From NCBI RefSeq assembly GCF_003334385.1, contig NZ_QOWN01000167.1: a stretch of 548 nt of DNA; one strand, written 5' to 3'. The notes under the pieces were generated by a model that saw only the letters and a list, made by a program, of their open reading frames with translations, searched no databases and was not told the DNA's origin. This document shows, piece after piece, positions 1-548 of this stretch. Position 1 is the first letter of the stretch, and the number at the start of each line of letters is the position of its first letter. Source of the DNA: Escherichia coli (lineage in GTDB: Bacteria > Pseudomonadota > Gammaproteobacteria > Enterobacterales > Enterobacteriaceae). A program made the position numbers and the translations under genes.

Positions 1-60
1 TGTGCAGCCATTTTGTCCGCAGCCATCTGTCTGGCCGTATCCGGTGCGCCTGCATGGGCG
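1..60 (+). other. Signal peptide coding segment (partial; N-terminal charged region lies upstream of the window), with predicted signal peptidase I cleavage after A-W-A, so the mature protein starts at the Ser codon at 61..63
   Basis: A hydrophobic core ([14 protein letters not shown]) is followed by a helix-breaking Pro and an A-x-A motif (APAWA) at codons 46..60, then a polar mature N-terminus (SEQQ). This is the standard Sec signal-peptide architecture for outer-membrane proteins. Confidence 0.8.
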
Positions 61-548
61 TCTGAGCAGCAGGCCACACTGAGCGCAGGGTATCTTCATG
101 CCCGTACGAACGCTCCCGGCAGCGATGATCTGAACGGGATTAACGTGAAATACCGTTATGAGTTTACGGACACGCTGGGGCTGATTACGTCATTCAGTTA
201 TGCCAACGCTGAAGATGAGCAAAAAACGCATTACAGCGATACCCGCTGGCATGAAGATTCCGTGCGTAACCGCTGGTTCAGCGTGATGGCGGGGCCGTCT
301 GTGCGCGTGAATGAATGGTTCAGCGCGTATGCGATGGCGGGTATGGCTTACAGCCGTGTTTCGACTTTCTCCGGAGATTATATCCGCGTAACTGACAACA
401 AGGGGAAAACGCACGACGTGCTGACCGGAAGTGATGACGGTCGCCACAGCAACACGTCTCTGGCGTGGGGGGCTGGCGTGCAGTTTAACCCGACCGAATC
501 CGTGGCCATTGATATTGCTTATGAAGGCTCCGGCAGTGGTGACTGGCG
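1..548 (+). CDS. lom: Lom/Ail/PagC-family outer-membrane beta-barrel protein (lambda Lom-like), partial at both ends; the start codon lies just upstream of the window and the stop roughly 15-20 codons downstream
   Basis: Frame 1 is open across the entire window (about 182 codons, no stop). The translation begins with a hydrophobic signal peptide ([19 protein letters not shown]) and continues with motifs I recognise from lambda Lom and the Ail/PagC family ([68 protein letters not shown]). Aromatic and hydrophobic residues alternate in a way typical of amphipathic beta-strands. Codon usage is enterobacterial. The supplied ORF track missed it because the ORF is truncated at both window edges. 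Confidence 0.93.

Follow-up and report, generated by a model that had tools for sequence, protein, structure and literature searches.

The 548-nucleotide stretch of Escherichia coli DNA examined here (assembly GCF_003334385.1, contig NZ_QOWN01000167.1), the whole of which is referred to as the window, is filled from end to end by lom, a gene of the Ail/Lom family that lies between the tail genes J and stf in phage lambda. Judged from its sequence, the window covers the interior of a lom gene of 199 codons. Its source is almost certainly the tail region of a lambdoid prophage of E. coli, either intact or decayed, and we place the probability of this explanation, which together with the mechanism proposed below is the best that we can offer, at about 0.9. 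The same location had been proposed in a first-pass annotation of the window on the identity of the gene, with the remark that nothing within the window itself shows the prophage context. We agree with the remark, and the proposed location is now supported by analogy with relatives of known context.

Coding content and genomic context

Frame 1 of the plus strand is open in all 182 of its codons and the remaining five frames are broken; the chance of 182 stop-free codons in random sequence is approximately 1.6e-4. The translation was found to match the Pfam family Ail_Lom (PF06316) with E = 6e-114 and 379 bits, residues 1 to 182 of the query aligning with positions 5 to 186 of the 199 in the model, and PHROG 108 ("Lom outer membrane protein") with E = 1.2e-97 over profile positions 5 to 186 of 199. 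The translated window is identical to the corresponding part of E. coli WP_016232698.1, which is annotated as an "Ail/Lom family outer membrane beta-barrel protein". From the relatives that encode the identical protein, the start codon of lom would be located 12 nt 5' of the window and the stop codon 40 nt 3' of it. The first four codons (MRKV) fall outside the window and are seen in the relatives. The window stops 13 codons short of the C-terminus, which is GVGYKF in all relatives that share the identical 182 residues, and the aromatic beta-signal (…Y-K-F) for insertion by the beta-barrel assembly machinery (BAM) would lie past the window end.

The best DNA matches to the window are 99.6–99.8% identical, and every difference is synonymous. 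Closest of all the sequences found is L074, a metagenome scaffold from ENA that differs only at site 417. Ten contigs (L074–L083) encode the identical protein; these are one to three synonymous bases away from the window and none of them is identical in DNA. The chromosomal copies in E. coli SCU-104 and UTAK-1 are 99.6% and 99.5% identical at the nucleotide level. The phage copies are 96.0% identical in the unannotated phage record 204576, 95.8% in the annotated lom of JLK-2012, 93% in phages cdtI and mEp460, 92.9% in phage 434, and approximately 93% in many Shiga toxin (Stx)-converting phages. By these identities, the lom of the window is of the class found in phage 434, mEp460, cdtI, the Stx phages, and thousands of E. 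coli prophages, a class that is far more common than the lambda type. The earlier description of the gene as a near-identical lom homologue holds for these other lambdoid phages and prophages (92–99.6% at the nucleotide level), but not for the Lom of lambda itself (41% at the amino acid level).

Related lom genes are carried in 197 phage records and 61 plasmid records. Among the 5,426 complete genomes of E. coli, 4,692 have a lom match, at a total of 14,371 places (median of 2 and maximum of 13 per genome), 14,323 of which are chromosomal. Several places per genome, most of them chromosomal, is the pattern of a multi-copy prophage gene. An 88-base piece of the nearly invariant 3' segment has an exact match in 70 viral contigs, none of which is identical across the full window, and no full-length exact copy of the window was found in the IMG/VR viral contigs or in the complete E. 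coli genomes.

The gene order in lambda is J, lom, stf (orf-401/orf-314), and tfa, as the first-pass annotation had stated, and this order was found throughout the relatives. All 10 of the places that encode the identical protein are in lambdoid prophages, where lom is preceded by J (1159 residues, or a remnant of J) and followed by a tail fibre gene with a phage_tail_N domain (1035–1137 residues) and tfa. Eleven hits were drawn at regular intervals from the top to the bottom of the E. coli ranking, and the same order was found in all 11; among them are a truncated-J remnant, a copy split by ISEc12, the lomR fragment of the K-12 Rac prophage, and two lambdoid phage genomes that were recorded as "plasmids". 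For the intact copies on viral contigs of IMG/VR, J ends 66–70 nt upstream and the tail fibre gene starts approximately 64 nt downstream in 228 of 235 cases. The seven exceptions are rearranged forms of the same neighbourhood: some have inserts of 0.8–1.5 kb, and the others are a copy with a J end that has diverged, a copy that has lost J, and a tandem duplication. In SCU-104 and UTAK-1 the copy is found within a full lambdoid late region that runs from nohA and terminase to J, lom, tail fibre, tfaQ, and pinQ and is integrated in ydfJ, the Qin prophage site. Prophages with the identical 199-residue Lom occupy at least three integration sites, namely ydfJ/Qin, a site on the ompT side, and one on the ybhB-bioA side, which is the side of the lambda attachment site.

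The flanks of the window can be predicted from these relatives. Upstream, a J-type tail-tip gene would end approximately 67–70 nt before the start of lom, or approximately 79–82 nt upstream of window position 1, and would be followed by the hairpin GGGCGCCAGAAATGGCGCC and then a T-run. Downstream, there would be 40 nt more of lom ending in ...GGTTATAAGTTCTGA, followed by the hairpin AGCCCGCCGGTTCAGGCGGGCT, a T-run, the start of stf approximately 64 nt after the stop codon, and tfa. Against this location it must be said that the window carries no flanks of its own, so that its context is argued from relatives alone, that the census of viral contigs is biased to phage-like DNA, and that the chromosomal sample free of this bias comprises few copies (11 plus 10).

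The 548 bases cannot tell an intact prophage from a remnant or a free phage genome, and the relatives must be consulted for this as well. A decayed remnant, in which lom was kept while one or both of its canonical neighbours disappeared, were shortened, or came to be separated from it by an insertion, would fall within the preferred explanation: the DNA would still be lambdoid prophage tail DNA. Copies in this condition do occur. J is truncated beside lom in strain E105, pseudogenised or duplicated in SCU-104 (the closest relative), and fused to terminase in contigs L080 and L081, which encode the identical Lom, and further cases are provided by K-12 Rac and by the inserts or loss of J among the seven exceptional viral-contig copies. 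Full-length neighbours are nevertheless present in 97% of the viral-contig copies and in 17 of the 21 copies of the chromosomal samples, and decay around this particular copy of lom is rather improbable. We consider it very unlikely that the window derives from a non-integrated lambdoid phage genome, either as virion DNA or as a circular "plasmid" record. The phage and plasmid records mentioned above would allow for such an origin, as would the 46-kb "plasmid 2" of an enterotoxigenic E. coli (ETEC) isolate, which is a whole lambdoid genome, and the fact that the nearest DNA match is a metagenome scaffold; however, all but 48 of the E. coli places are chromosomal, the best identity to a phage record is 96% versus 99.6% for the chromosomal copies, and the nearest scaffold, L074, itself runs into the chromosomal ydfJ/ydfI genes. 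A stand-alone chromosomal paralogue of the ail/pagC/ompX type without phage context, which the first-pass annotation had named as the scenario that would overturn its proposal, can be dismissed with near certainty, since the superfamily is indeed common to chromosomal OmpX and Rck/PagC, with weak NCBIfam hits to both, and the window shows none of its flanks, but the scores are far below the equivalog cut-offs (102.9 versus 258 bits for Rck, NF011777; 90.2 versus 176 for OmpX, NF006917), the identity to OmpX and Ail is approximately 30% versus 92–99.6% at the nucleotide level to phage and prophage lom, and no stand-alone chromosomal lom was seen among the approximately 256 relatives examined, all of which are adjoined by phage tail genes.

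The gene lom and its location between J and stf have belonged to the textbook knowledge of lambda since 1979–1982, and lom of the window type is present in most of the sequenced E. coli. The assignment of the window is already known biology and confirms a correct inference at the level of annotation. Its practical value is that of a marker: a lom match in a short contig reliably indicates the DNA of a lambdoid tail module.

Expression and possible role of Lom

Lom was reportedly recognized as an outer-membrane protein by Reeve and Shaw in 1979. In the relatives of the window, a terminator-like hairpin with a T-run stands on each side of lom; both would lie outside the window, and their stabilities are -15 to -18 kcal/mol. 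The upstream hairpin is found between the stop codon of J and the ribosome-binding site of lom, approximately 50–20 nt before the start (L074 9952–9981). Its stem has undergone compensatory double changes across alleles (GGGCGCC…GGCGCC, GGGCGTC…GACGCC, and GGGCACC…GGTGCC). The hairpin that lambda carries in this position is a different one. The downstream hairpin, which is followed by a T-run, is located 27–58 nt after the lom stop codon and before stf (L074 10627–10658), has a stability of about -18 kcal/mol, and is conserved in the relatives, lambda included. Both hairpins are independently annotated as terminators in the record of phage 434.

For lambda Lom, the literature describes expression at a low level in lysogens and at a high level late in infection (Liu et al. 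2013, as cited in PMC9836094 and PMC11888456), and the expression of lom in a Phi24B lysogen was the same with or without induction (PMC3342100). Late transcription, antiterminated by Q, would read through both hairpins in lytic growth, and the lysogenic level of lom would come from a weak promoter.

Plasmid-expressed lambda Lom was found to cause a strong block of lambda-vir and to leave T7 unaffected, and the authors of that work proposed either superinfection exclusion or the prevention of non-productive adsorption during lysis (PMC11888456). PDB entry 9wso contains chains of lambda Lom and of maltoporin (LamB), and the maltoporin construct is the same as that in the J-LamB complex 8xcj. 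Neither J nor Stf is among the chains of 9wso, and no paper describing the entry was found in the literature searched. The entry implies that a complex of Lom and LamB has been solved, and if the two proteins bind directly, receptor masking would account for a block that is specific to lambda. Given this joint deposition of lambda Lom with LamB, the receptor of lambda, we propose that Lom would alter the cell surface and that its primary role would most likely be to mask the receptor of the J tip of its own phage. Masking would limit wasteful adsorption or superinfection, and adhesion would be a side benefit to the host. Receptor masking by the allele of the window is something that we infer only from lambda Lom.

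It is possible, although we regard it as unlikely, that Lom is primarily a virulence or adhesion factor of benefit to the host through lysogenic conversion, and not a receptor mask of benefit to the phage. Lambda Lom has been associated with the adhesion of K-12 lysogens to human buccal epithelial cells, a lom mutant lowering this adhesion (Vica Pacheco 1997, as cited by later papers). Ail and Rck are adhesins and serum-resistance factors, the fold match of Lom is to Ail, and Lom is expressed in lysogens. On the other hand, expression climbs steeply toward the end of lytic growth, shortly before the host dies, the position of lom inside the receptor-recognition module is fixed across hundreds of phages, and the defence phenotype is specific to lambda-vir. 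The PDB entry that combines LamB and Lom, and the tracking of the J-tip type by the loop-2 (L2) cassette of Lom, also favor the masking proposal. The two roles are not mutually exclusive.

The relationship between the J tip and Lom was determined using 187 unique combinations from 233 loci, which were sampled by L2 type. Cramer's V between the type of the J C-terminal tip and the Lom L2 cassette was 0.69. It was about 0.30 between the J tip and the signal-peptide/strand-1 segment, which lies physically between the J tip and L2, and 0.20 between the signal-peptide/strand-1 segment and L2. Of the 96 unique combinations with the NAE cassette, which is the type found in the window, 92 have a type-0 J tip. 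Phage 434, which uses OmpC, has a type-2 J tip and the GDK cassette. The type of the L2 cassette predicts the type of the neighbouring J tip. This association, together with a duplication of the unit "J tip + lom" in L164 (see below), fits the co-inheritance of the tip and the Lom loop. It is conceivable, if doubtful, that the loop variants of Lom each bind the outer-membrane receptor of the adjacent J tip, as seems to be the case for lambda Lom and LamB in 9wso, and that "J tip + lom" is a co-adapted cassette inherited as a unit. If so, the NAE-type L2 cassette of the window would mark the receptor used by type-0 J tips.

Several points weigh against the mechanism proposed here. According to the discussion of PMC11888456, lysogens show no resistance to lambda-vir under laboratory conditions. 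The partnership of Lom with LamB in 9wso is read from chain lists, and lambda Lom, the source of the masking proposal, is by sequence comparison only 41% identical to the protein of the window and most different in the surface loops. Clonal sampling or short-patch gene conversion could give the same association between J and L2. With regard to expression, no sigma-70 consensus promoter was found on the plus strand within approximately 700 nt upstream of lom (L074 9300–11100), and a manual inspection of the 100 nt upstream of lom revealed no convincing promoter; the upstream hairpin ends approximately 20 nt before the ATG and leaves little room for one. The GC content of lom (0.55) forms no clear discontinuity with those of the 3' end of J (0.48–0.52) and stf (0.51–0.63). 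The designation of lom as a moron, an accessory gene with its own transcription unit in a phage late operon, in the first-pass annotation is only partly borne out by these features of the sequence, because a downstream terminator is present in the relatives, but no sigma-70 consensus was found upstream for the separate promoter by which morons are defined, and the base composition is not distinctive.

It has been asked for decades what benefit Lom provides to the phage. The LamB-Lom deposit and the association between J tips and Lom loops lead to a specific and testable proposal, namely self-receptor masking with allele matching, and this side lead could matter more than the assignment of the window.

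Features of the window and mosaicism of lom

The features of the window are collected in Table 1. The protein is predicted to be an outer-membrane beta-barrel of the Ail/OmpX fold with a Sec signal peptide. In the translation, residues 5–24 comprise a hydrophobic core followed by A-W-A before SEQQ. The full-length identical protein was modelled with AlphaFold2 (AF2; mean pLDDT of 83.8), and the model has a low-confidence N-terminal helix at residues 2–18 and then the barrel, with strands at residues 29–40, 47–58, 63–81, 86–108, 111–135, 141–166, 172–181, and 188–198. The beta3-beta4 and beta5-beta6 hairpins of the model are unusually long and protruding. The top folds from Foldseek were Yersinia Ail (3QRA) and OmpX (1QJ9), with a probability of 1.0 and TM scores, normalised to the target, of 0.82–0.84. 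The nearest solved chain by sequence is lambda Lom (9wso, chain C), and OmpX and Ail are also matched by phmmer.

Table 1. Coordinates of the features identified in the 548-nt window
Feature	Position	Strand	Basis and remarks
lom coding sequence, internal part	1–548	+	Frame 1; codons 5–186 of 199 plus two bases of codon 187
Sec signal peptide remainder (putative), residues 5–24	1–60	+	Inspection of the translation; predicted cleavage after AWA and before SEQQ (…SGAPAWA/SEQQ)
Mature 8-stranded beta-barrel (predicted), residues 25–186	61–548	+	AF2 model; eighth strand past the window
Predicted strands	73–108, 127–162, 175–231, 244–312, 319–393, 409–486, 502–531	+	AF2 model
Variable 5' segment (signal peptide, strand 1, loop 1), two main forms	1–132	+	Per-site diversity, segment-wise pN/pS, clustering, blastn breakpoints 64 and 91
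Loop-2 (L2) cassette, residues 71–82	199–234	+	Near the tip of the long protruding beta3-beta4 hairpin; allele table and strand assignment
Nearly invariant 3' segment, residues ~150–186	436–548	+	Conserved even at synonymous sites; last ~40 bases common with lambda-type lom
Three diagnostic third-codon-position sites, all synonymous (417 C, 471 G, 540 T)	417–540	+	Base-by-base comparison with relatives

The combination of bases at the three diagnostic sites was found in no relative, and the 138-base stretch that spans them has no match in the collections of genome contigs and metagenome contigs. An antisense open reading frame on the minus strand (190–447; 85 codons with a GTG start) had been listed mechanically. 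It was judged to be spurious because internal stops are present in 6 of 60 alleles that are at least 90% identical, it has no family support, and it is wholly inside a well-supported sense gene.

The flanks of lom had been described in the first pass as recombination hot spots, and the relatives bear this out. A block of approximately 9.4 kb (L-K-I-J-lom-stf) with 95–99% identity carries the identical Lom protein and is joined to different tape-measure genes (853 versus 1077 residues), different integration sites, and variable tail-fibre C-termini. The lom gene is itself a mosaic. In blastn alignments of different contigs with the window, the identity is interrupted at positions 64, 91, 185, 233, and 342, and the signal-peptide/strand-1 and loop-2 segments each have two discrete forms, of which all four combinations occur. 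The alternative form of L2, found in other alleles including that of phage 434, is YAGDKNRQLTRY. Amino acid variation falls mainly in the signal peptide, in loop 1, and in the upper portion of the hairpin between strands beta3 and beta4. The 3' third of lom is nearly invariant: in its b6, T3, b7, and L4 segments, the synonymous diversity (pS) is 0.00–0.09 and the nonsynonymous diversity (pN) is at most 0.008. The ratio of nonsynonymous to synonymous change (dN/dS), pooled over 60 distinct alleles, was determined to be 0.25, and lom is intact in 79 of 81 extracted copies.

A number of rearrangements involve lom directly. Several independent internal deletions of prophages have one endpoint inside lom, at approximately window position 185, 231–233, or 342, and leave stf-tfa intact (L016 2897–3532, L030 3275–3577, L049 ~7357–7603, and L092 5963–6178, the last of which is K-12 Rac). 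The products join gene I, lysis/head genes, the small terminase, or a truncated tape-measure gene to the 3' part of lom. Those IMG/VR loci that seemingly have no upstream J were found to be deletion derivatives of this kind, with gene I, Nu1 (small terminase), or lysis/head genes fused to a 5'-truncated lom, and do not represent a different context. In L164 (763–6402), a tandem duplication of the J C-terminal tip (residues 900–1159) and lom has given the order J-lom-J'-lom-stf, and two Lom features are annotated in phage PhiR49_1. At L080 7311–9933 and L081 5326–9933, open reading frames have the GpA ATPase and nuclease domains of the large terminase joined to J domains. These prophages, which are beside bioA and keep the identical Lom, stf, and tfa, have lost all of the head genes and most of the tail genes.

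Two observations were made on the tail fibre genes downstream of lom. The C-terminal tip of the stf product beside lom in L074 (10665–14012) is close to the receptor-binding tip of T4 gp37 (PDB 2xgf, E = 1.8e-88), and its first 94 residues match the N-terminal piece of lambda Stf in the tail structures 9e7m and 9mgh. Genes for type III effectors are found just past the tail fibre genes, as nleL and espN in L094 (8451–12546) and as NleB-, NleC-, and NleH-like genes in phage 434 (L305 6413–8546).

Comparison with known Lom proteins and outer-membrane barrels

The Lom proteins closest to that of the window are those of phages 434, mEp460, cdtI, and JLK-2012 and of the Stx-converting phages. These phages have the same 199-codon gene, and the relatives share its position between J and stf and the flanking hairpins. 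Lom from phage 434 differs from the protein of the window at 17 residues, seven of which are in the L2 cassette (NAEDEQKTH in the window versus GDKNRQLTR in 434). The lomR of the K-12 Rac prophage is of the same lom type, with 97.7% nucleotide identity over window positions 231–404, and is likewise found upstream of stfR-tfaR-pinR. However, lomR is a fragment attached to what is left of a truncated tape-measure gene, and an IS5-family element interrupts it, whereas the frame in the window is unbroken.

Lambda Lom (NP_040601) represents a different allele class of the same gene, with an amino acid identity to the window of 41% over 174 aligned residues. At the level of megablast, the DNA of the lambda-type lom is similar to the window at positions 509–548 only, which are the last ~40 bases. 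The two types are alike in their membership of PF06316, their position between J and stf, their predicted 8-stranded barrel, their last ~25 residues, which are nearly identical, and their downstream hairpin. They differ in length (206 residues in lambda versus 199), in loop 1, which is longer in lambda, in loops 2 and 3, and in the sequence of the upstream hairpin. The J tip of lambda is 56% identical, over its last 199 residues, to the J tip that adjoins the window-type lom.

Yersinia Ail (3QRA), E. coli OmpX (1QJ8/1QJ9), and Salmonella Rck and PagC have the same 8-stranded outer-membrane beta-barrel fold, and their homology to Lom is detectable at E ~1e-18. The identity is approximately 30%, and the beta3-beta4 and beta5-beta6 hairpins of Lom are much longer, its length being 199 residues in comparison with approximately 150–170. 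Lom is phage-borne, whereas Ail, OmpX, Rck, and PagC are encoded by core chromosomal genes or genes of virulence plasmids.

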